From Candidatus Dadabacteria bacterium (lineage in GTDB: Bacteria; Desulfobacterota_D; UBA1144; Nemesobacterales; CSP1-2), in contig PSLL01000009.1 in NCBI GenBank assembly GCA_040289575.1, positions 40,892 through 100,515 of the forward strand: a DNA stretch of 59,624 nucleotides, read 5' to 3'. Shown here in pieces: positions 1 to 10,241 of the stretch. The notes below the pieces were generated by a model. The model searched no databases. It was not told where the DNA came from and was given only the letters and a program-made list of their open reading frames with translations. Each line of letters opens with the position of its first letter. Positions within the stretch are counted from its first letter, which is position 1. Made by a program: the position numbers and the translations under genes.

Positions 1-747
1 GCCACTAGCGCCGCGCCCGCCAGATAAATCCAATAAACGCGCGGCAGTCCTTCCGCTTTCACGTTCGGCACTTCCGTTTCCATCTCTTCTGGCCGTGGGT
101 AAATCCATCGCGCGATCAGCAGCAGGCTAAGACAGATGACTCCAGGCAAGAGCAGGAGGGCAAAGGCAAAACGATATTCACCGCGAATGGCAAGAACCGC
201 TGCCACAGCCAGCGGGCCGAATAGGGCACCGAATTGGTCGAGCGCCTCGTGCATACCAAACGCCCAGCCGTAACCGATTTCCTTGGCGGCATACGAGAGC
301 ATCACGTCGCGCGGCGGATTGCGCGTGGCGCGCCCGGCGCGTTCCAGAATGATCAGCGCAGCGGCGGTTGGCCACTTTGCCGACGCGCTCGAGAATAATT
401 AGCACGGCAGCCATCGGCCAGTTGCCCGCCAGCGCCAGCGCTGGCACCGAAAGCATTTGGATGAAGTAACCAAAGATCGTGATTGGCCAGAACTTGCCAG
501 TGACATCTGCAAGGCGGCCGGAAATGAGACGCAAACCGTAGCCAGCTAGTTCGCCAAAACCGGTGACGACGCCCACCACCGTGGCGCTAGTCTGCAAGAG
601 AGCGAGGTACGGGCCGAGAATACTGCGCGAACCCTCGTATGTAAAGTCGGCAAAGAAACTGAGTGCGCCAACCATCAAGACGAATTTCAGGGCAGACCTT
701 TTTAGGATGCTCTTTTTATCTTCCGGCAGAATTGATTGATATTCCAC
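1..747 (-). pseudogene. MFS transporter, frameshifted at a 46-nt diverged duplication; runs off the left edge
   Basis: Hydrophobic MFS N-terminus (SFFADFTYEGSRSILGPY...GELAGYGLRLISGRLAD). After ...WPMAAVLIILERVGK the MFS sequence resumes in another frame at 374 (WPTAAALIILERAGRATRNPPRDVMLSYAAKEIGYGWAFGMHEALDQFGA...), open to base 1. Confidence 0.85.
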
Positions 748-839
748 TGATATTCCTCTTTAGGAGTATCGCTCGAATGAAGTCGTTTAGGGATACCCAT
801 ATTGTCATACTCGAGTAAAAGTTTGCAGAAATGGTAGCA

Positions 840-2606
840 TTACGCGCTTTCTAAGGTATTCTCCAGCCTCTTTAGACTCAATCTAATTCGCTTTAACACA
901 TCAGCATGCTCTTTGAGGTTTTTCCTGGCATATGTAATCTTTTCTTCGCCAGCTCCACTTTCCAGAACAGCCCGCTCAAGAGCAGATTCAATTCCCATTA
1001 GCGTCGCATCAATCTTGGAAAACAGCTCATCACGAAACCTTCTGAGGTTCTTTTCTATGCGCTCTAGAAAATCGTACCTAATTCTTCCAGCATTTCTATC
1101 CAGCTGTTCTCTACACTGCTCGAGCATCCTACTTAGTACCACCCTTCGAAATAAGAATCCCGGCAGAGCAAATGGCAAGACTTCAAGGGCAAGATTGGTA
1201 TCGAATAGGGATTCAATCCTGTACTGGAGATAACCTTCTGCAGAGAGAGTTTCTACGCCGCTAAAGGTCTCTACTTTAATATCAAAGATGTCTGAGGATA
1301 GTTTCTTGATATATGTTATTATCTCATTGGCTTTGGATGAAAACCGTCTTGAGATGTTTTCAAACTCCCTATCCAATTTATCCTCTTCTAGAATACGCCA
1401 TTCATTGAAAATGCACTCAATCTCCTGCCTCATCGCACTGTCTATCGATTTTGACAACTCGATTTTGCTCTTATCTTTGTAAATTTTATAATGCCCTTCC
1501 ATCTTTTTTACAAGCTCAGGAGCCTTCTCTTCTACAAAATTTTTCAAATCAGATTCGAGCATAGAAATAAGCCTTTGCTCTTCCCCTTTTAGAAGATAGT
1601 CAAAATCCACTTTATCCAGACGGATTTTCTCCTTTTGAATATTAAACTCACTTATCTTCCTTCTAAGCTCTTCCAATGGAATGGAGATGGCTTTCACTTC
1701 AAGTTCTATAGACATCATTTCGTCTGAGAGGATTTTAAGAGTATTATTTAGTGCAGAACTGATAATGGCTTTGCCCTTTTCCTTCATAAGGAAATCATTT
1801 AAAGCCCTTTCAAAATCCGAAACCGAGCTGCGGTCACGCATTTCTTGATTGCCGTTTAACCTTCCTTCTAGGGCATACTTGGCAGATATAGGAAAGATTT
1901 TTATATCCTTTAGACCAACCTTCTGTTCAATTACGTGCTTCGTAAACTCAAGCGACTCAATTCTATCCTTTTCATCCATCTGGTCAATCTTATTTTGCAG
2001 AAAAAGGATTTTATCTACATATTTTCTTATATCATTCAGGAAATCATACTCAACCTGACTAATCGGCGGGTCTACACCGACTAGAAAAACTGCGGCATCT
2101 ACCTTGGACAGATAATTGTATGTAACGGCGGTATTGTGCTGATATGTTGAGCCGATTCCCGGAGTATCTATAATCTGAACCCCATCCCTTAAATAAGGGG
2201 AGTCATAATGAACCTCCACGTACTGCACCCCTTTTTGGTTTTCTGGATTACCCTTCTCAGTTACATAATCTGGAAGCTCATCAAGCGTTATTTCTTTTCT
2301 AGTCCCGTTATTAAATAAAACTTCAATGTGCAGGTTATTTCCATATTTAATCAGCGTAATAATAGATGTAAGCGGAACAACCCCTGTAGGAAGTAATCGG
2401 CTACCCAGCAGGGCATTGATGAGTGTAGTTTTCCCTCGTTTAAACTGTCCAAGAACGGCTAGATTGAAATGGCCCTCCAAGAGCTTCGCTATAAGTTCTT
2501 CCACAGCCCTTGTTACACCCTCATTCTTACAATGAGAGGCCAATTGGTATAAGTCTTTCAGGTTCTCTAACAGGTAGTTTCTTGCCTCTACATATGACTC
2601 CGGCAT
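840..2606 (-). CDS. Bacterial dynamin-like GTPase (Dynamin_N family), 588 aa
   Basis: G1 GQFKRGKTT, G2 region GVVPLTS, G3 DTPG, G4 NKID, followed by a long helical stalk. Confidence 0.92.
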   Translation of the reverse strand: MPESYVEARNYLLENLKDLYQLASHCKNEGVTRAVEELIAKLLEGHFNLAVLGQFKRGKTTLINALLGSRLLPTGVVPLTSIITLIKYGNNLHIEVLFNNGTRKEITLDELPDYVTEKGNPENQKGVQYVEVHYDSPYLRDGVQIIDTPGIGSTYQHNTAVTYNYLSKVDAAVFLVGVDPPISQVEYDFLNDIRKYVDKILFLQNKIDQMDEKDRIESLEFTKHVIEQKVGLKDIKIFPISAKYALEGRLNGNQEMRDRSSVSDFERALNDFLMKEKGKAIISSALNNTLKILSDEMMSIELEVKAISIPLEELRRKISEFNIQKEKIRLDKVDFDYLLKGEEQRLISMLESDLKNFVEEKAPELVKKMEGHYKIYKDKSKIELSKSIDSAMRQEIECIFNEWRILEEDKLDREFENISRRFSSKANEIITYIKKLSSDIFDIKVETFSGVETLSAEGYLQYRIESLFDTNLALEVLPFALPGFLFRRVVLSRMLEQCREQLDRNAGRIRYDFLERIEKNLRRFRDELFSKIDATLMGIESALERAVLESGAGEEKITYARKNLKEHADVLKRIRLSLKRLENTLESA

Positions 2607-2618
2607 AGAACAAATCTC

Positions 2619-3326
2619 CTATAGCGGATTATTCAAGTTTCCGTGCTCTAAAACCGTTACTAAACTGCTTTTGATATGAATATCTAGCGGGGTTGAAAGA
2701 ATCTTCTCTATTGTCTTATTTATATTGTATGTGACCCTCTTTATCTCCACATCGCCGTCATTCCATATGGCATAGGATGCCTTTGCCGGAATATCTTTTG
2801 ACTGGCCTACACTGCCGGGATTAATAATAGTCGTCCTATCTATTCTCTTAATCATGGAAACATGTGTATGACCAAGGAGCACAAAATCTGCGTCCAGCCC
2901 TTCTATTTCCTGTCGCCAGATATAATCGGGTGAATCGGGTGGTATATACTTAAATAGATTATCAGTCGGCGTTGCATGTGTAAGAAAAAACCTCCCTCCG
3001 CCAAGTTCCACCACCCTATTTAGGGGAAGGGAACCAAGATAATTAATTTCTCCCTCTTCGAGAATATTCCACATAAGCTCTCTTGTCTTTACAGACATCA
3101 TTTTGTATGCCGCACTGCATTTGCAGTCGGTCCTGAAGGCTACGGCGCTATCGTGGTTTCCGCGTATGACGGCATGGGCGTTCTTTTTTACAAAATCTAT
3201 GCACTCCCTCGGACTCGGGCCATAGTCAACTAAATCTCCCAAACAGAGAAGGTAGTCATACTCCTCTTTTATAGCCTCCAGCGACTCAATATTTGCGTGT
3301 ATATCCGAGATAATTAGAATCCTCAT
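2619..3326 (-). CDS. Metallophosphoesterase (calcineurin-like, YfcE/MJ0936 type)
   Basis: Motifs SDIH, GDLVDYG, GNHD, THA, GHTH, NPGSVG. Confidence 0.93.
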   Translation of the reverse strand: MRILIISDIHANIESLEAIKEEYDYLLCLGDLVDYGPSPRECIDFVKKNAHAVIRGNHDSAVAFRTDCKCSAAYKMMSVKTRELMWNILEEGEINYLGSLPLNRVVELGGGRFFLTHATPTDNLFKYIPPDSPDYIWRQEIEGLDADFVLLGHTHVSMIKRIDRTTIINPGSVGQSKDIPAKASYAIWNDGDVEIKRVTYNINKTIEKILSTPLDIHIKSSLVTVLEHGNLNNPL

Positions 3327-3353
3327 TGAAATATCCCCCTTTATTCCAATATC

Positions 3354-4085
3354 CTAGAGTTCCTTACCGACAAAGAATTTAATAGCCCTGATCCAGGCTG
3401 TTTGTTCTTTACCCTTGGATTCATGCGAATAGCGATAATCTGTTTTGCGCCAATACTCTTCTAAATCGTCATTTAGCTTTCTAAGCACCTCAACCTGCTT
3501 TTGAATCAGAATTTCTAAAGACTTGGGAGATGCGAATTTAATGGCTTGGTTAAAGTGATTCATACACAGCCCCTGAGAATTATAGTAAAGCCCTTTAACC
3601 CTCTCGTCTTCTAAATCCATTATGAGATTATGAATCCATTCGGTCGCTTTGTTGGAAATGGATTTGCAAATCGGACAAGTCTCTGACGGCTCGAGTTGTT
3701 TCTTAGCCTCCTCTAAGCGTTGTATGTGTTTTTTACCCGTTATTTTTCTGATTACTTTATTAATCCTGCTTTCAGGTTTATATTTCTTCAATTCTTTGTA
3801 TAATCTTCCCAATTTCACCAGCGCCGATTTGACCAGATATTCATATACTACAGACATTTCATGCCCCTTTCCCATGCGAATCAAGTCCCAAGAATGCCTA
3901 TTACAAAAACCTCTGGAATTCAGTGTCCTATCTATCCAGGTGGTGTCATGGTAGTACTCAATAAAATACCAGCGATAAAAATATCTTAAGTCCTCATCGC
4001 AGAGCAGGCACACAGGACAATCATTGCCATCTCTCAATGCCTCCAATAATGACGACGATTTCCTAATGAAACCCAGTGTTGCCAT
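3354..4085 (-). CDS. DUF6062-like putative zinc-binding protein with two CxxC...CxxH repeats
   Basis: CPVC...RGFCNRH and CPIC...QGLCMNH. Family name recalled from the pattern, not searched. Confidence 0.75.
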   Translation of the reverse strand: MATLGFIRKSSSLLEALRDGNDCPVCLLCDEDLRYFYRWYFIEYYHDTTWIDRTLNSRGFCNRHSWDLIRMGKGHEMSVVYEYLVKSALVKLGRLYKELKKYKPESRINKVIRKITGKKHIQRLEEAKKQLEPSETCPICKSISNKATEWIHNLIMDLEDERVKGLYYNSQGLCMNHFNQAIKFASPKSLEILIQKQVEVLRKLNDDLEEYWRKTDYRYSHESKGKEQTAWIRAIKFFVGKEL

Positions 4086-4101
4086 GGAATTTAATCCCCG
4101 C

Positions 4102-4545
4102 TCACACTTTATTTAAAATATATTTCTCCACCATATCGCTATCTGTTCTATCTTCTTGTTCATTACGATCATCTGTAATCTTGAGGATATTTTTAAAGCT
4201 TCTATTAATCGCTTTTGCTCCCGTCAGTTTAATTGCCAGCGTCTTATTCCTAGAAAAGGTTTCAAAGCACTCATATCCTAAAGCCGCATTTCTGCTCGAA
4301 AGCCTTCTATAGTCCAGGGTTACATCCTCTAGCTCCGAGACCAGTTTATTTTTTCTGATTGTGAGTTCTGATAGCTCTTTTTCTATCTCATCTACTCTAT
4401 CAATTACATCAACCCCAAATGATATAACCCAACCGAATACTTCTTCCTCAGTCCAATCCATTTTAACTGGCGCTTTCTTAATCTCTTCATAAAGCCCTAA
4501 AGGAAGTGCTACAGAAAGTTTTCTTTGTTTATAACTCATTGCCAT
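4102..4545 (-). CDS. Hypothetical protein: RHH-like N-terminus plus coiled coil
   Basis: 147 aa, co-oriented and tightly packed in the operon. LSVALPLGLYEEIKK strand-helix pattern, then heptad-rich segment. Confidence 0.7.
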   Translation of the reverse strand: MAMSYKQRKLSVALPLGLYEEIKKAPVKMDWTEEEVFGWVISFGVDVIDRVDEIEKELSELTIRKNKLVSELEDVTLDYRRLSSRNAALGYECFETFSRNKTLAIKLTGAKAINRSFKNILKITDDRNEQEDRTDSDMVEKYILNKV

Positions 4546-4551
4546 CTAATT

Positions 4552-4923
4552 TCACTTCTGATCTGCGGAGCTTTGCTGTCTTACCAGTACTTTCAGTTCC
4601 TTATTTTCAGAGTTCAATATTTCCAATCTCTTATAGATATAATCGCTATCCCTTTGGGATTCGATACAGAGTTTTTCGAGTCTACTGTTCTCTTCAATAA
4701 AACGTTTAATTTCTCTCCACAGGTTCCCTATCTTCCCAGATAGGGAGGCGTTTTCTTCTTTAATCATGTCAATTTCAAGTTTAAGCAGTCCCGCGCTTAT
4801 TATTTTTTGTATTGCACCTGTTTCTTCGAGTTCGTGAGTCTTTATAAAATTCAGGACTCGTCCATAAACACCCGCCGGGATATTAACAATAAACGTGATT
4901 TGGTCAGGATATTTACGCTTCAC
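4552..4923 (-). CDS. Hypothetical protein: RHH-like N-terminus plus coiled coil, paralog of 4102-4545
   Basis: GTG start with GAGG upstream. FIVNIPAGVY...IISAG aligns ungapped with LSVALPLGLY...VISFG. Confidence 0.7.
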   Translation of the reverse strand: MKRKYPDQITFIVNIPAGVYGRVLNFIKTHELEETGAIQKIISAGLLKLEIDMIKEENASLSGKIGNLWREIKRFIEENSRLEKLCIESQRDSDYIYKRLEILNSENKELKVLVRQQSSADQK

Positions 4924-4969
4924 TCCAACCTCTTATAGAGGCTTTTTCTATCAATGATATTCTCATTTA

Positions 4970-5416
4970 TCACCTTTGCGATTTATTCGATTTAGCTTCT
5001 ATCCTCAAGCTTATTTCAATGAGTTCCTCTACCTTGGGATCTCAGAAATCGGCAAGTTCTTTTGGTGCCTTACCATATCTATCCAGCCCGCTACTTCTCA
5101 TATCTGAAAGCGCTTCCCCAATATGTGCGGCTTCTCCCCGCACCTTCCTTACCACTGATTCCTCTTGTGTCTGAAGATTAAGCCCACCTTTTAACTCTCT
5201 GATAATCCTTCGCATCTCTTCTATATCCTGGAGTATCGAATTTCGAACCTCATCATCCAGGTGGTCGTCTAATTTATAAGTTATTCTCTCTCTATTGTCA
5301 GTAATTAATGCCTCCTCAATCCGCTCAAGGGATTTTTCGAGCATATACAAACCTACTATTATGACTCTCTGATGGTTTGGACTAATCTCTATCACCTTAT
5401 TAAGGCTCCTCATCAT
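4970..5416 (-). pseudogene. Helical 'RYG' protein with in-frame TGA at 5044-5042 (paralog of 6951-7385)
   Basis: After TGA the frame continues DPKVEELIEISLRIEAKSNKSQR to a stop at 4972-4970. The TGA aligns with Leu of FLD in the paralog. Confidence 0.75.
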
Positions 5417-5482
5417 CTTAATCGAAAAAAATTACTGCACTCCCGATGTCCCTAAGAAATGCCAAGTTTGATAGGAGTATAT

Positions 5483-6454
5483 TTATCCATTTTTACTCAG
5501 TCTTTCTATAAGTTCCTTCAAAGACTCGATAACTGCCTCCGAGAGATATACCTTTTCTCCTCTAACATTCTCTACCTTTCTCTCATTTAGCGCGTTCTCA
5601 ATGTATGGTAAAGCCGCCGAATTGAGTTCTGATAGGGCTTCGATGCACAAACCGTGAGTGTACCAATCACCCTCATTCAATCCCGATATGAGTTCTGGAA
5701 TAACTTTTATGATTTTATCTTTGTCGATGCCGATCTTTAACAGAGATAAAGCCGCATATAACCTGACTTCCCATTCTTCATCCTCCAGTCTCTTGAGTAG
5801 TGGCCGGATGGCTTCAGGGTCACCGATTTCTCCCAGCAGTCTGGTAGCCTCGACGCGTCTTCTTATACTCGGATTTGTTTCATATATAGAAGGGGTGTAG
5901 TTTCGCCTAGCCAATGCCTCTATAAGTAATGGAACAGCATCTTTACCAAATTTAAGCAGAGCTTTACCAGCTGTCTCCCGTGAATAGTCATCCTCAAGCA
6001 TTTCAACTATATAAGGCATAGCTCTTTTTTCCTTGAAGTTCGAAAGAGCCTCAGCTGCACCCATTAAATGGTTCTCTTTTAGACACCTAAGTAGTGGCTC
6101 TATCGCCCTCTCATAGCCTAAGATTGCAAGCTGCCTGGCGGCCTGATTTCTTACAGTTTCTTCGGCAAGGCGAACCTGTGGGTCAAGCGGTTCTAAGTCG
6201 CACAAATCCAGTACCTGTATAAGCCCTTCGCTAGACTCTTCACCACCGATCATTCCAAGGGCTTCGGCAGCCAGGCAGCGCGGCTCCGAGAAGATAGATG
6301 GAGAAGAAAGTAAAAGTCCAATAATGGGTTTTACAGCCACCCTTCCGCATTTAATTACTTCAAGCAACGCACTTGTATTGCTTCCGAGATTATTAAGCCC
6401 CTCTACTAATCTCTCTATTTCTTCTCTATGGATCCTACACATTAAACTCGGCAC
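5483..6454 (-). CDS. HEAT-repeat (PBS-lyase-like) protein, 323 aa
   Basis: Repeated units: AAEALGMIGG, VEATRLLGEIGDPEAIRPLLKRLEDEEWEVRLYAALSL. Confidence 0.9.
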   Translation of the reverse strand: MPSLMCRIHREEIERLVEGLNNLGSNTSALLEVIKCGRVAVKPIIGLLLSSPSIFSEPRCLAAEALGMIGGEESSEGLIQVLDLCDLEPLDPQVRLAEETVRNQAARQLAILGYERAIEPLLRCLKENHLMGAAEALSNFKEKRAMPYIVEMLEDDYSRETAGKALLKFGKDAVPLLIEALARRNYTPSIYETNPSIRRRVEATRLLGEIGDPEAIRPLLKRLEDEEWEVRLYAALSLLKIGIDKDKIIKVIPELISGLNEGDWYTHGLCIEALSELNSAALPYIENALNERKVENVRGEKVYLSEAVIESLKELIERLSKNG

Positions 6455-6939
6455 CTCCTTGATATAACGGTTAGTTTATCCAATGAAGCACGTGCCGATT
6501 CCCTAACATAATGACTGTGATCCCCGATTGCCCTTTTTAAAGCCTCTATCACCTCTTCTTGTCCATCAAAGTTGCCAAGGACGGCAGCCGCCTTGCCTCT
6601 TACCAGGAACGAAGGGTTATTCAGCATCTTAATTAAGAACGGCACCGCCCTTTCATCCCCAATTTTGCCTACGGCTTCGACAACCTCCTCCATGAGAAAG
6701 TAATCATTGGTCCTGTTAAGTAGTTCAATCAGTGGTCTTATGGCTGCCCTCTCACGCCTCTCACCTAATATATAGCAGACCCTGTATACGGTAGAGCGCT
6801 CGGAATGATTGAGAGAATCTATGAGTTTCTCTGTGAAGCTTTTCTCAACCCATTCCTCTACATTTCCTCCGCACTGCAGACAGGTTTTTGTATTCTTTGA
6901 AATCTCATTCCAGCAAAAGGGGCAAAAGTAGTGTATCAT
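6442..6939 (-). CDS. Zinc-ribbon plus HEAT-repeat protein, 165 aa
   Basis: N-terminal CPFC...CLQC, then AVGKIGDERAVPFLIKML and VRGKAAAVLG repeats. Overlaps the next gene by 13 nt. Confidence 0.88.
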   Translation of the reverse strand: MIHYFCPFCWNEISKNTKTCLQCGGNVEEWVEKSFTEKLIDSLNHSERSTVYRVCYILGERRERAAIRPLIELLNRTNDYFLMEEVVEAVGKIGDERAVPFLIKMLNNPSFLVRGKAAAVLGNFDGQEEVIEALKRAIGDHSHYVRESARASLDKLTVISRRCRV

Positions 6940-6950
6940 GGTTCCCCTCC

Positions 6951-7385
6951 TTATGTTCCCGTATCCTTATGTTTTGAACTGGCAATCTCGCAAATTTCAT
7001 CAATCAGATTCATGATTCTATCTACCTGAGTATCTAGAAACTCTCGAAGCTCATCCGGAACCTCTCCGTAGCCACGAAGCCTTTTTGATTTTATCTCTTC
7101 CAGATTTACCCGCTGAATGGTCATGGCGCCGAGTATTCGGTTTTTTATTTCTTCTCTTCGTTTCTCTAAATTCAATTTTTGAGATACATAGGTTATCAAC
7201 CCTCTTATCTCATCTATGCGTTTTAGAATCAATGCCTTTTCCCAAGGTGAGAGGTTATTTAAGGTTTCGATCATAGCTTTTCTTTGATTGGCACCTCTTA
7301 TAATCTCTTCTACACCGGAGATTGTATCTTCAAGAACCTCCATAGATACAGAAAGACGGGCTTTATGGTTTCGTGGTACTTCCAT
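6951..7385 (-). CDS. Helical hypothetical protein with LRGYGEVP motif
   Basis: 144 aa, AGGA RBS. NH...LE N-terminus and SKRLRGYGEVPDELREFLD C-terminus shared with 4970-5416. Confidence 0.78.
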   Translation of the reverse strand: MEVPRNHKARLSVSMEVLEDTISGVEEIIRGANQRKAMIETLNNLSPWEKALILKRIDEIRGLITYVSQKLNLEKRREEIKNRILGAMTIQRVNLEEIKSKRLRGYGEVPDELREFLDTQVDRIMNLIDEICEIASSKHKDTGT

Positions 7386-7395
7386 GATTATCCTC

Positions 7396-7546
7396 TCACA
7401 AATCCAATTCTTTCTTATTATTGTAGAGCTTATATCCGTCCATGATTACCTTCTCAGCTTCCTCCGCTCCCCTGTAGCCAAATGTCATTAACTATTTCTG
7501 GTGGGTGTTTTCCAAATGGTAAGTCAACGAGATTTCTTCTCTCCAT
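7396..7546 (-). pseudogene. ppa: Collapsed remnant of a family I soluble inorganic pyrophosphatase (N- and C-termini only)
   Basis: AAGGAGG RBS, then MERRNLVDLPFGKHPPEIVN (PPase LPxGKxPPE start) joined out of frame to TFGYRGAEEAEKVIMDGYKLYNNKK (PPase-like final helix). Confidence 0.6.
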
Positions 7547-7865
7547 GGCATCTCAACCTCCTTATTAAAAAACCTGGAATGATATTTCACAAACAAAGGA
7601 TGATTCTTTCTCAGTTCGAGATTCACTACAGGACTCCTGCAAAATGGAGAATGGCTCTCCACTTTAGGTTCAGAAGTAATACCTAGATTCTTAAATTTAG
7701 ATGGAGAACTTCGATAGCCCGGCCCCTGTCCGATTATGAATAGGGCATAAGAGAAAAAACATCTGACCTTATTTAAATTATTTGAATAGTACATCTCCTA
7801 CCCCTTATAAACTTCAAGAAGGCATTATGATAAGCCATATTAGCCTTCCTCCAGAATCTATTTGG

Positions 7866-7920
7866 GTAGGAGTTATTAACTGCCGAAAGGGTCAGTAATT
7901 ATAAGGTGAACTCCATCACC
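7866..7920 (-). promoter_or_regulatory. Fluoride riboswitch aptamer (crcB motif)
   Basis: Minus strand GGTGATGGAGTTCACC-TTATAATT-ACTGACCCTTTCGGCAGT-TAATAACTCCTAC: P1 GGUGA/UCACC, pseudoknot GGAGU/ACUCC, P2 ACUG/CAGU, 3' UAAUAACUCCUAC close to the URAUGACNCCUAC consensus. Confidence 0.87.
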
Positions 7921-7939
7921 TATAATAGATAGTATAGAA

Positions 7940-7948
7940 ATTATACCA
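7940..7948 (-). promoter_or_regulatory. Extended -10 promoter (TGgTATAAT) upstream of the riboswitch
   Basis: Perfect TGnTATAAT about 20 nt 5' of the aptamer; -35 weak. Confidence 0.5.
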
Positions 7949-8115
7949 TAAGTCATCTATTTATGCCACTCTTTTATAGACTAAGGTCTTAAAGATTATA
8001 AGGAGCTGATGATAAGAATCCTCTTTAGCTACGGTCTAATTAAGATAAAAACCAAACTTACAGACAGTTGATAAAATTTGATATGGCCTCATATGGATTG
8101 TAAAATCTTTGACCT

Positions 8116-8571
8116 ATGAAAGCCATGCATGCACTCATGATAGAGGAAATGAGACCGTCGGACCTCGATGAGATAATGCTAATTGAGGAGGCGTGCTTCC
8201 CTACACCATGGCCAAGACAGGTGTTTGATATGGAGCTAAAATCCCCTCGCTCCTTTGTTCGTGTCACAAGGCTCAACGGCGTGATTGTAGGCTATATCGT
8301 CGCATGGATGGTATGCGATGAAATACACATACTCAATATCGCCGTTCATCCAGACTTTAGAAGGATGGGCATAGGGGAAAGCATGATGAGATACTGTCTT
8401 GATCATTTTCTCACAAAAGGCGCAAAATATGCAATACTAGAGGTCAGGCGCGGAAACACCGGGGCAAAGAGACTTTATGAAAAACTGGGGTTTAAATCTG
8501 TTGGTATAAGACGCGGATATTATGTGGATACAGGAGAAGACGCAATTGTAATGATGCTTTCTATGAAGTAG
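8116..8571 (+). CDS. rimI: Ribosomal protein S18 alanine N-acetyltransferase (GNAT)
   Basis: IEEACFPTPW, HILNIAVHPDFRRMGIG, LEVRRGN, RRGYY...EDAIVM. Confidence 0.92.
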   Translation: MKAMHALMIEEMRPSDLDEIMLIEEACFPTPWPRQVFDMELKSPRSFVRVTRLNGVIVGYIVAWMVCDEIHILNIAVHPDFRRMGIGESMMRYCLDHFLTKGAKYAILEVRRGNTGAKRLYEKLGFKSVGIRRGYYVDTGEDAIVMMLSMK

Positions 8572-8595
8572 GAGCGACCCGGCGGGTGCCCTCAC
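8568..8595 (+). repeat. GTAG-type REP-like palindrome (degenerate)
   Basis: GTAGGAGCGACCCGGCGGGTGCCCTCAC between convergent rimI and mutase; GTAG overlaps the rimI TAG. Confidence 0.6.
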
Positions 8596-8600
8596 AAGGA

Positions 8601-10241
8601 TTATCCCGCTACAGTCCCACCAACTCTATATCTTCCATAAACCTTCTCAAGCGTCATACTCATCTCGCCTATAGTAGCGTAATCTCTTACAGCCTCTACT
8701 ATGTACGGCATGAGATTCTCATTGCCCCTTGCCGCCTCTTCAAGTCTCCTGAGGTCGGCTCTTACTTTATCGTTGTCCCTTTGGCTTCTTAATCTCTTAA
8801 GCCTCTCCATTTTAATCGCTTCAATCTGTGGATTGATTTTATGAATCTCAACCGGCTCCTCGTTTGAATTTATATATTCGTTTACGCCAACAATTATCCT
8901 CTCCTTTTTCTCCACCTCGCGCTGATACCTGTACGAAGCCTCTTCAATCTCATGATTGATGTACCCCTCCTCAATACACCTTATAGTCCCGCCTCTTTTA
9001 TCAATCTGTTCGATATATTTGACAGCTTCTTCCTCTATCTTATTCGTAAGTGCCTCTATGCAGTACGAGCCTGCAAGCGGGTCTATTGTATCGCCCACGC
9101 CACTCTCATAGGCAATAATCTGCTGCGTGCGAAGGGCAATCGTTGCTGCCTCTTCCGATGGCAGCGCTAGGGCTTCATCGAATGAATTTGTATGAAGTGA
9201 TTGAGTTCCTCCAAGAACCGAGGCGAGGGCTTGAATGGTTACCCTCATAATGTTATTTCTCGGCTGCTGTGCGGTAAGTGTAACGCCAGAGGTTTGCGAA
9301 TGGAATCTGAGCATACAGGCTCTATCGTTTTTTGCCCCAAATCTCTCCTTCATAATCCTCGCCCAGAGTCTCCGCGCCGCACGGAATTTGGCTATCTCTT
9401 CAAGAAAGTTATTATGGACGGCAAAGAAAAACGACACCCTCTCTGCGATTTTCTCAACATCAAGCCTCCTTGCTTTTGCATGCTCAAGATACTCAATCGC
9501 ATCCGCAAGAGTAAAAGCCACTTCCTGAACCGCTGTAGAGCCGGCCTCGCGCATGTGATAGCCGCTTACACTTATCGGATTCCATTTGGGTATTCTATCG
9601 TGGCAATACTCCATAATATCTATAGTGATCTTTACAGAATCCCTTGGAGGAAATATATAAGTCCCCCTTGCTATAAACTCCTTAAGCAGGTCGTTTTGAA
9701 CCGTGCCCTGAATCCTATCGGGGCTGACGCCCTGCTTTTCGGCAGCCACCATATACATCGCAAGTAGCATTGAAGCTGTGGCGTTTATTGTCATAGATGT
9801 GCTTACTTCACCGAGGGGAATCTTGTCGAAAAGAATCTCCATATCTTCCAGCGAATCTATTGCGACGCCGACTCTTCCTACTTCACCCCTACTCATCGGA
9901 TGGTCGGAGTCGTACCCCATCTGCGTTGGAAGGTCGAAGGCAACACTAAGACCGGTTTGTCCCTGATCGAGGAGATATCTAAACCTTTCATTGGTTTCCT
10001 CAGCCGTGCCAAATCCTGCATATTGTCGCATTGTCCAGAGCCTTCCACGATACATCGTGGATTGAACCCCGCGTGTAAATGGATACTCACCCGGGTATCC
10101 GAGATCCCGCTCGTAATCAAGGCCTTCTATATCCTCAGGTGCATAGAGCCTATCAAGAACTATGCCGGATGGGGTACGAAATTCATTTTGCCGCTCCTTT
10201 GCTTTTATCTGTTTTTCCCATTCTTTCTTTTTTCTTGACAT
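8601..10241 (-). CDS. Methylmalonyl-CoA mutase, substrate-binding (large) subunit of a split enzyme
   Basis: [19 protein letters not shown] (Tyr specificity residue), [24 protein letters not shown]. No B12-binding DxHxxG domain. Confidence 0.93.

Follow-up and report, generated by a model that had tools for sequence, protein, structure and literature searches.

We describe an operon in a 59,624-nucleotide (nt) stretch of DNA, hereafter the window, from a Candidatus Dadabacteria bacterium (contig PSLL01000009.1). A fluoride riboswitch stands at the head of the operon and a bacterial dynamin-like GTPase is its central product. That the family of this dynamin is tied to the fluoride aptamer, and hence to regulation by it, is well supported by sequence comparisons across genomes. 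We consider it probable, with considerable room for doubt, that the products of the operon form a bacterial dynamin machine of several subunits that works at the cytoplasmic membrane; for this machine we infer fluoride induction, complex formation and a membrane role.

A fluoride aptamer heads a block of co-oriented genes

A crcB-type aptamer had been proposed in a preliminary description of this DNA. The Rfam covariance model RF01734 matches 7860-7929 (-) with 44.4 bits (E 4.4e-9; the curated gathering score is 34) and aligns from the first to the last of its positions (1-64 of 64); the proposal therefore stands. The Rfam alignment contains both strands of the fluoride-aptamer pseudoknot, GGAGU in the P1 loop and ACUCC in the 3' tail. 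RF01734 is the sole Rfam family in the 59.6-kb window. Moreover, orthologous aptamers head the same operon in two relatives at 80%, the loci L001 (57.2 bits in Rfam) and L005 (46.1 bits). The features of the leader are:

7969-7940 (-), promoter-like site with an extended -10 element (GTGGCA-18-TGgTATAAT); consensus scan, 10 of 12 matches with TG, a consensus match only
7860-7929 (-), fluoride riboswitch aptamer (crcB motif, RF01734); Rfam covariance model
7795-7872 (-), putative expression platform; minimum-free-energy fold
7492-7794 (-), first open reading frame (ORF), 100 residues, no family; ORF call, Pfam and NCBIfam

In the predicted fold, the 3' strand of the aptamer, CUCCUACCC, pairs with GGGUAGGAG around a nested GAAGGC/GCCUUC hairpin. 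GGGUAGGAG contains the Shine-Dalgarno sequence of the first ORF, whose AUG at 7794 lies directly 3' of the sequestered site. The minimum-free-energy fold of the leader reaches -48.5 kcal/mol (z -4.25; equalled by 0 of 200 shuffled sequences), and GGTAGGAGATG is invariant across the leaders of the window, L001 and L005. No U-tract terminator was found in the leader. Because the 3' tail pairs with the Shine-Dalgarno region and a U-tract terminator is missing, the expression platform is predicted to be translational and to act on the 100-residue first ORF. Orthologues of this ORF in L005 and L001 are 30-43% identical and have a common C-terminal block (SPLVSLELRKNHSLL-like); no Pfam or NCBIfam family was found for it. 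It may be the remnant of a gene, encode a small protein or serve as a leader ORF, in which case its translation may protect the transcript.

Downstream of the aptamer lie ten close-packed, co-oriented minus-strand ORFs with the domains that the preliminary description had assigned to them. Pfam and NCBIfam agree on the zinc-ribbon-HEAT, HEAT, DUF6062, YfcE-type and Dynamin_N proteins; what the earlier gene list had left out is the 100-residue ORF at 7492-7794. The intergenic distances are, in order, 106, 11, -13, 66, 118, 6, 16, 27, 12 and 92 nt, and no terminator-like site is predicted on the minus strand within the operon. The preliminary description had also seen no Fluc or CLC gene. For CrcB this is confirmed, as tblastn with three CrcB queries recovers no homologue in the 59.6-kb window; the search was confined to the window and CLC-F was not searched for.

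The dynamin family is tied to fluoride aptamers across phyla

The central gene of the operon is:

840-2606 (-), dynamin-like GTPase, 588 residues, BDLP/IniA/mitofusin class; Dynamin_N (PF00350) 99.1 bits, cut-off 27

Its G1 motif (GQFKRGKT), T80, the G3 motif (DTPG) and the G4 motif (NKxD, here NKID) are invariant in 20 homologues. A profile search of the PDB finds the bacterial dynamin-like protein BDLP with an E-value of 1.2e-41 over residues 27-436, and Foldseek, run on the predicted structure, recovers BDLP (4e-23) and IniA (7e-23; TM-score 0.45). The other best PDB matches are the Campylobacter jejuni DLP pair, SynDLP and mitofusins. In the model (predicted local distance difference test score, pLDDT, 77.9), the GTPase domain is joined to a long stalk of helices, the neck and trunk. 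A hydrophobic region spans residues 446-490 at the stalk tip. No other segment outside the GTPase domain is as hydrophobic as LALEVLPFALPGFLFRRVVL beside the tip (mean hydropathy 1.45 over 19 residues), which shows partial conservation. The hydrophobicity of this region fits peripheral membrane insertion, without proving it. When the remaining operon genes are compared with those of L005 and L001, the ratio of nonsynonymous to synonymous substitution rates (dN/dS) ranges from 0.07 to 0.46 and is lowest for the dynamin (0.07-0.09). By this measure, the remaining genes are under purifying selection.

The dynamin has thousands of homologues. A scan with one genome per species identified a relative in at least 570 genomes, from which the 80 best loci were kept; the survey set consists of 82 loci (L001, L005 and so forth) with dynamin relatives at 37-80% identity. 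We built a covariance model of our own from six aptamers, which gave 111 matches in 1.42 Mb of loci. A same-strand match lies at most 400 nt upstream of the dynamin in 65 of the 82 loci, while an even spread of the 111 matches would place one in this slot in about 1.3 loci. In six further loci the distance is 400-2,500 nt, and antiporter (Na+/H+) and Usp genes usually lie in between; in four the aptamer is further upstream still, window-type operons among them. The rest comprises six loci with no same-strand aptamer and one lacking upstream sequence. When rechecked with Rfam, nine of nine mid-range matches pass at 40-53 bits and two of the eight weakest pass. Our model thus overcalls below about 30 bits, and because six of the eight weakest matches fail the Rfam threshold, the conservative count is 59/82.

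Conserved co-occurrence with crcB aptamers across phyla, which the preliminary description had claimed, is therefore borne out, since the dynamin has its own aptamer upstream in 59-65 of the 82 loci. An aptamer score below threshold and homologues lacking such co-occurrence had been named beforehand as two of the three outcomes that would refute that description, and on both counts the results favoured it. Record titles assign 39 loci to Desulfobacterota and 18 to Nitrospirota; others belong to Actinomycetota, Bacillota, Acidobacteriota, Binatia, Aquificales, Deferribacteres, Poribacteria and further groups, which makes at least eight phyla by record labels, labels that may be wrong for metagenome-assembled genomes. 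L001 has the same operon behind its aptamer. In Thermincola potens (45% identity), the dynamin follows CrcB-CrcB-DUF190 and has its own Rfam-grade aptamer 77 nt upstream. The dynamin of Desulfoferrobacter suflitae (43%) likewise has its own Rfam-grade aptamer, 139 nt upstream, and faces an aptamer-led MFS-enolase-DUF190/CBS-CrcB-Usp-Na+/H+ antiporter operon (MFS, major facilitator superfamily).

In one locus (L024, 4758-4935 (+)), an M-box magnesium riboswitch (135 bits) is found just downstream of the aptamer-led dynamin gene. Fluoride is reported to sequester Mg2+.

Partner domains recur beside dynamins and fused to them

Five further proteins of the operon belong to families that were traced in the other loci:

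6951-7385 (-), RGYG1, free-standing helical domain without a family model; jackhmmer family
6442-6939 (-), protein with zinc ribbon and HEAT repeats; HEAT_2 83 bits, weak DZR match
5483-6454 (-), longer HEAT protein, 323 residues, 13-nt overlap with the zinc-ribbon-HEAT gene; HEAT_2 96 bits, HEAT_PBS 79.5 bits
5042-5416 (-), RYG2, second gene of the RGYG family; 25% identity to RGYG1, E 2e-9
3354-4085 (-), DUF6062 protein; PF19538 82.4 bits against a cut-off of 27, residues 14-241

Neighbouring genes were identified among the six-frame ORFs of the 82 loci by BLAST, clustering and jackhmmer. Na+/H+ antiporters occur in 27 of these loci, MFS transporters in 21, Usp in 20, enolase and DUF190 in 13 each and CrcB in 12. 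Thus, the dynamin neighbourhoods are typical fluoride islands. Zinc-ribbon-HEAT proteins are present in 12 loci, RGYG in 11, the long HEAT protein in about 6, DUF6062 in 6 and the metallophosphoesterase in 3. The neighbourhood survey that the preliminary description had proposed turned out in its favour here too: at least one of RGYG, zinc-ribbon-HEAT, HEAT and DUF6062 recurs near the dynamin in 18/82 loci, which come from Acidobacteriota, Nitrospirota, Desulfobacterota, Actinomycetota and others. Zinc-ribbon-HEAT homologues adjoin or overlap the dynamin gene in L014, L018, L020, L033, L056, L067 and L074, and homologues of the long type are found in L007, L032 and L062.

The order of genes varies. 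In Thermodesulfovibrionales it is aptamer, antiporter, Usp, dynamin and zinc-ribbon-HEAT; L067 has aptamer, dynamin, DUF6062, zinc-ribbon-HEAT and RGYG. An actinomycete has aptamer, dynamin, MFS and zinc-ribbon-HEAT, followed by a second aptamer, DUF6062 and RGYG, and a Terriglobales genome has aptamer, antiporter, Usp, RGYG and dynamin.

Two of the partner domains are also found within dynamins. A 902-residue ORF of Syntrophobacter (L038) combines Dynamin_N (89-247) with DUF6062 (684-884; 45.5 bits, cut-off 27). It has its own Rfam-grade aptamer and is flanked by a zinc-ribbon-HEAT gene upstream and an RGYG gene downstream. At the other end of the protein, the RGYG domain forms residues 5-160 of dynamins of 707 (L086) and 683 (L088) residues. 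Searched against 1.84 billion proteins, an RGYG profile built from 18 sequences matches 2,871 cluster representatives. Among the best 150 matches, about 42 are 608-722 residues long and carry the domain at their N-terminus, and in ten of ten longer RGYG proteins that were scanned Dynamin_N starts from about residue 200. The small proteins of the window are thus free-standing versions of dynamin domains, and we therefore argue that they would belong to one physical machine.

In the window itself, RGYG1 has a dN/dS of 0.25-0.28. The second RYG protein of the preliminary description is indeed a paralog of RGYG1 (25%, E 2e-9), though without the last helix of the family: about 25 C-terminal residues are missing in the alignment with its L005 orthologue. 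The DUF6062 protein has two Cys3His sites, C23, C26, C61 and H64, and C137, C140, C174 and H177. Six of these residues (C61, H64, C137, C140, C174 and H177) do not vary across 50 sequences, and C23 and C26 reach at least 90% conservation. Its model is all-helical (pLDDT 90.3), and a fold search returned no PDB match (best E 1.8). In L005, two tandem DUF6062 paralogs (7816-9239 (+)) occupy the place where the window has one.

A DUF6062 profile search gave 123 proteins. Four distant DUF6062 genes on long contigs (18-22% identity to that of the window) all lie in aptamer-led islands with dynamins (4/4), with 2, 4, 2 and 2 Rfam aptamers, respectively. These islands contain antiporter, Usp, enolase, paired MutS domain V ATPase, pyrophosphatase and HAD genes, besides Metallophos, AAA_16, FGE-sulfatase-like, MFS and HEAT genes. 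One aptamer directly precedes Metallophos-dynamin-FGE-DUF6062 and another MFS-DUF6062-AAA_16-RGYG-dynamin.

Several further observations concern these neighbourhoods. L086 (17 kb) is a dense island with four aptamers at the Rfam threshold and a fifth below it; it holds enolase, the RGYG-dynamin, DUF6062, two MutS domain V ATPases, Metallophos, pyrophosphatase, HAD, two Usp and a second dynamin. In L007 (7218-9315 (+)), an RGYG gene seems to run, through a frameshift, into a second dynamin gene that immediately precedes the main one, which is either a sequencing error in a natural fusion or a decaying fusion. A family of small proteins of 95-110 residues, for which there is no Pfam or NCBIfam model, occurs in 15/82 dynamin loci (for example L025, 503-832 (-); L047, 3689-4078 (+); L004, 11996-12295 (+)). 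Its L047 gene lies directly behind a 28-bit aptamer match of our own model, a score in the range in which that model overcalls. A prenyltransferase-like alpha-alpha toroid protein is encoded directly downstream of the dynamin in five loci (for example L050, 11739-12542 (+)), and L087 has a similar gene. Finally, a few kb downstream of the fluoride island of Thermincola potens (L003, 16122-21764 (+)) lie Wadjet (JetABCD) and a SNF2/SWIM helicase; the proximity of Wadjet is probably coincidental.

Decay of classical fluoride genes and the remaining members of the operon

The rest of the operon comprises:

7396-7546 (-), probable remnant of a gene for family I pyrophosphatase, with one N-terminal piece (LPFGKHPPEIVN) and one C-terminal piece (GYRGAEEAEKVI); frames read by eye
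4924-5041 (-), deletion scar of 118 nt at the enolase site of relatives; comparison with L005 and L001
4552-4923 (-), coiled-coil protein CC1, 123 residues; homologues in L001 and L005 only, dN/dS 0.22
4102-4545 (-), coiled-coil protein CC2, 147 residues; homologues in L001 and L005, distant match in L060
2619-3326 (-), YfcE-type metallophosphoesterase; Metallophos_2 77.9 bits, TIGR00040 56.3 against 56.25, borderline
1-747 (-), MFS transporter cut by the end of the window (ORF 3-747); 64% identity to the intact MFS of L001

L005 has an intact enolase gene at 5699-6982 between RYG2 and CC1, and L001 retains an enolase remnant of 87 residues; the window has no enolase match. The pyrophosphatase (ppa) remnant had been part of the preliminary description. 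By eye it is plausible, as we take the two pieces to resemble the termini of the enzyme, and part of it is conserved in L005, though absent in L001. Statistical matches are lacking: neither the pieces nor their join match Pfam at E<=10, and tblastn with the L086 pyrophosphatase found nothing, the pieces being very short. Judged by these comparisons, the classical fluoride genes have decayed in this lineage and the dynamin set has been kept under purifying selection.

CC1 and CC2 had been described as paralogs, and their similarity is weak (BLASTP E 0.078). In the metallophosphoesterase the motifs DxH (DIH), GD (GDLVDYG), GNHD and GHTH are intact. A homologue directly precedes the dynamin behind the aptamer in L085, and others are found in L052 and L086. 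An intact MFS gene, encoding 397 residues, follows the dynamin in L001. The MFS gene of the window had been described as broken. However, the apparent 46-nt duplication and frameshift at 324-374 are absent from contigs of three soil-metagenome runs, which carry AATCG in place of the 51 bases 324-374, and this yields one continuous MFS frame; one of the three runs may represent the sample from which the window derives. The frameshift is therefore probably an assembly artefact. NCBIfam assigns the transporter to no specific subfamily, and of the suggestion that it exports fluoride what stands is its co-occurrence in 21 of 82 loci.

A candidate dynamin machine and the alternatives to it

How the proposed machine might work can be outlined as follows. 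When cytoplasmic fluoride rises, the aptamer pseudoknot would form and free the Shine-Dalgarno sequence of the first ORF. This ORF would then be translated, and the long transcript, probably shielded from premature termination, would allow the downstream genes to be expressed. The 588-residue GTPase would be the core of the machine, with RGYG1, RYG2, DUF6062, zinc-ribbon-HEAT and HEAT as subunits or adaptors. For RGYG and DUF6062 we propose this because they are fused to the N- and C-termini, respectively, of dynamins in other genomes. The complex would assemble on the cytoplasmic membrane through the hydrophobic stalk tip and maintain or reseal the membrane under fluoride stress, as IniA and DynA do in other envelope stresses; a role in membrane integrity is thus suggested by analogy. 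The phosphoesterase, like the lost pyrophosphatase and enolase, would represent extra copies of fluoride-sensitive enzymes, and the MFS protein would be an accompanying transporter. Fluoride reportedly damages the membrane and the wall of Streptococcus mutans and lyses its cells (PMC12700350).

Several points weigh against such a machine. The RNA runs that were searched for the locus do not carry it. In the window, the platform sequesters the ribosome-binding site of the first ORF only, and that the riboswitch also governs the other nine genes, spread over 7 kb, is an assumption. For 6 to 17 of the 82 loci there is no reliable aptamer immediately before the dynamin gene, and accessory genes lie within 10 kb of the dynamin in just 18/82, so that the partners are not obligate. 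CC1 and CC2 are confined to close relatives, and the metallophosphoesterase recurs in few loci (3/82). The dynamin has neither a transmembrane segment nor a known lipid-binding motif, and its stalk tip is poorly modelled, with residues 446-481 disordered (pLDDT <50). Finally, the membrane damage in S. mutans results from a lineage-specific competence cascade and may not hold more widely.

A bolder version of the machine is one that we regard as speculative. Dynamin, RGYG, DUF6062 and HEAT would form a third, export-independent arm of fluoride resistance. Fluoride would act in it twice, first as the ligand of the riboswitch and then, with GDP, as a magnesium or aluminium fluoride mimic of the transition state that dimerises the GTPase domains and locks a membrane-sealing or tethering assembly.

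Fluoride and metal-fluoride complexes classically act on P-loop NTPases and metallophosphatases. The switch might serve to compensate for inhibited targets only. In that case the dynamin and the phosphoesterase, and perhaps further NTPases of these islands, would be fluoride-sensitive, and the riboswitch would raise their dose, as for enolase and pyrophosphatase, with no dedicated machine being involved. Enolase and the pyrophosphatase remnant in the operon or its relatives agree with this, as do the MutS domain V ATPases, AAA_16 ATPases, HAD and Metallophos enzymes of related islands. A 2024 review reads phosphatase genes behind fluoride switches as offsetting inhibition (PMC11139923), and Clp ATPases are inhibited by fluoride (PMC12700350). 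We nevertheless think this unlikely. It needs a housekeeping activity, yet most members of the dynamin family are found behind an aptamer of their own. The conserved non-enzymatic RGYG, DUF6062 and HEAT proteins and the fusions point to a dedicated assembly. Moreover, enolase and pyrophosphatase were lost here, while the dynamin set was kept under purifying selection.

The switch could also be a relic that once served pyrophosphatase and enolase only, with the dynamin cluster on internal promoters and in a function unrelated to fluoride. The platform does touch just the ribosome-binding site of the first ORF, the classical genes have decayed in this operon, and several promoter-like sites are present on the minus strand within it, yet fewer than in shuffled sequence. 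This is very unlikely in view of the aptamers directly upstream of the dynamin itself in 59-65 of 82 loci and of the partner genes that also stand behind aptamers elsewhere. In addition, L001 and L005 have the same operon head, the genes are closely spaced or overlapping, and the operon has no predicted internal terminator.

An anti-phage system of the dynamin (LeoABC-like) kind with HEAT partners, the alternative raised in the preliminary description, draws on PADLOC matches of the GTPase to LeoA (73.9 bits) and LeoBC (62.9 bits), on weak matches of the HEAT proteins to HEAT-ARM defence candidates and on the Thermincola dynamin beside Wadjet (JetABCD), but is disfavoured to the point that we give it hardly any credence, as these matches reflect generic dynamin and HEAT homology, both dynamin matches fall on one protein with no second dynamin in the operon, the neighbours are fluoride-response genes instead of defence or mobile genes, and fluoride riboswitch control in most relatives would have no rationale in defence.

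Significance and relation to known systems

If a fluoride-induced dynamin machine exists, it would bear on several questions. The role and the inducing signal of bacterial dynamin-like proteins are a long-standing question, and fluoride would be a defined and cheap candidate inducer for a large clade. The operon also supplies candidate subunits for this clade, which has relatives in at least 570 species-level genomes, among them cultured carriers such as Thermincola potens. It would give a first functional context to Pfam DUF6062 and to the unannotated RGYG domain, which comprises about 2,900 sequence clusters and forms the N-terminus of a class of dynamins of about 690 residues. In addition, the cell membrane would join export, pH control and enzyme overproduction in the picture of fluoride toxicity. 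Fluoride tolerance is relevant to engineering the degradation and synthesis of organofluorines (PMC11139923).

The searchable literature, with the Baker 2012 gene list outside the search, contains no link between fluoride riboswitches or crcB and dynamins, and it does not mention DUF6062. No GTPase is mentioned for crcB in Weinberg 2010 or in the first 200 of its 438 supplementary files. A 2024 review lists exporters, antiporters, pyrophosphatase, HAD, enolase, formate hydrogen lyase and chorismate mutase as gene classes, and no GTPase (PMC11139923); it also covers the classical fluoride-riboswitch operons, and the FRM operon of Enterobacter cloacae is described elsewhere (PMC5533749).

The operon of the window shares with classical fluoride-riboswitch operons the RF01734 aptamer, an ON switch. 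Those operons reportedly consist, in the account attributed to Baker et al. 2012, of crcB/Fluc, eriC-F/CLC-F, Na+/H+ antiporters, ppa, eno and usp genes. Enolase is common to them and to the relatives of our operon, and CrcB, DUF190, antiporter, Usp and pyrophosphatase are neighbours elsewhere. In contrast, CrcB was not found in this operon or window (CLC-F not searched), the conserved cargo is a dynamin with RGYG, DUF6062 and HEAT, and the platform is predicted to be translational and not a terminator.

A second comparison is with stress-induced bacterial dynamins. IniA mediates membrane fission and confers tolerance to envelope-targeting drugs. Mycobacterial IniBAC (IniA, PDB 6J72) is also a stress-induced operon centred on a GTPase of the BDLP class, and IniA is among the best fold matches of the window dynamin, though at about 17% sequence identity. 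IniBAC is induced by cell-wall inhibitors via a protein regulator, whereas we propose induction by fluoride via RNA, and neither IniB nor IniC is related to RGYG, DUF6062 or the zinc-ribbon-HEAT protein. The GTPase domain with helical neck and trunk and a tip loop are shared with BDLP of Nostoc punctiforme (2J68/2J69), DLP1/DLP2 of C. jejuni (5OWV) and DynA of Bacillus subtilis. Related fluoride islands contain side-by-side dynamins, as in the DLP1/DLP2 pair. Compared with these proteins, the window dynamin is shorter (588 residues) and its tip has no clear paddle, and the extra domains of the proposed machine of this clade have no counterpart in them. We know of no inducing ligand for BDLP, DLP1/DLP2 or DynA. 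With LeoABC and the 'Dynamins' entry of PADLOC, the operon shares a dynamin-family GTPase at the level of modest hidden Markov model matches; it differs in having no paired LeoBC-type second GTPase and no defence-island context, and in its riboswitch control. Two known kinds of system are joined here, fluoride-riboswitch operons and stress-induced bacterial dynamins, and their link would be the new point.

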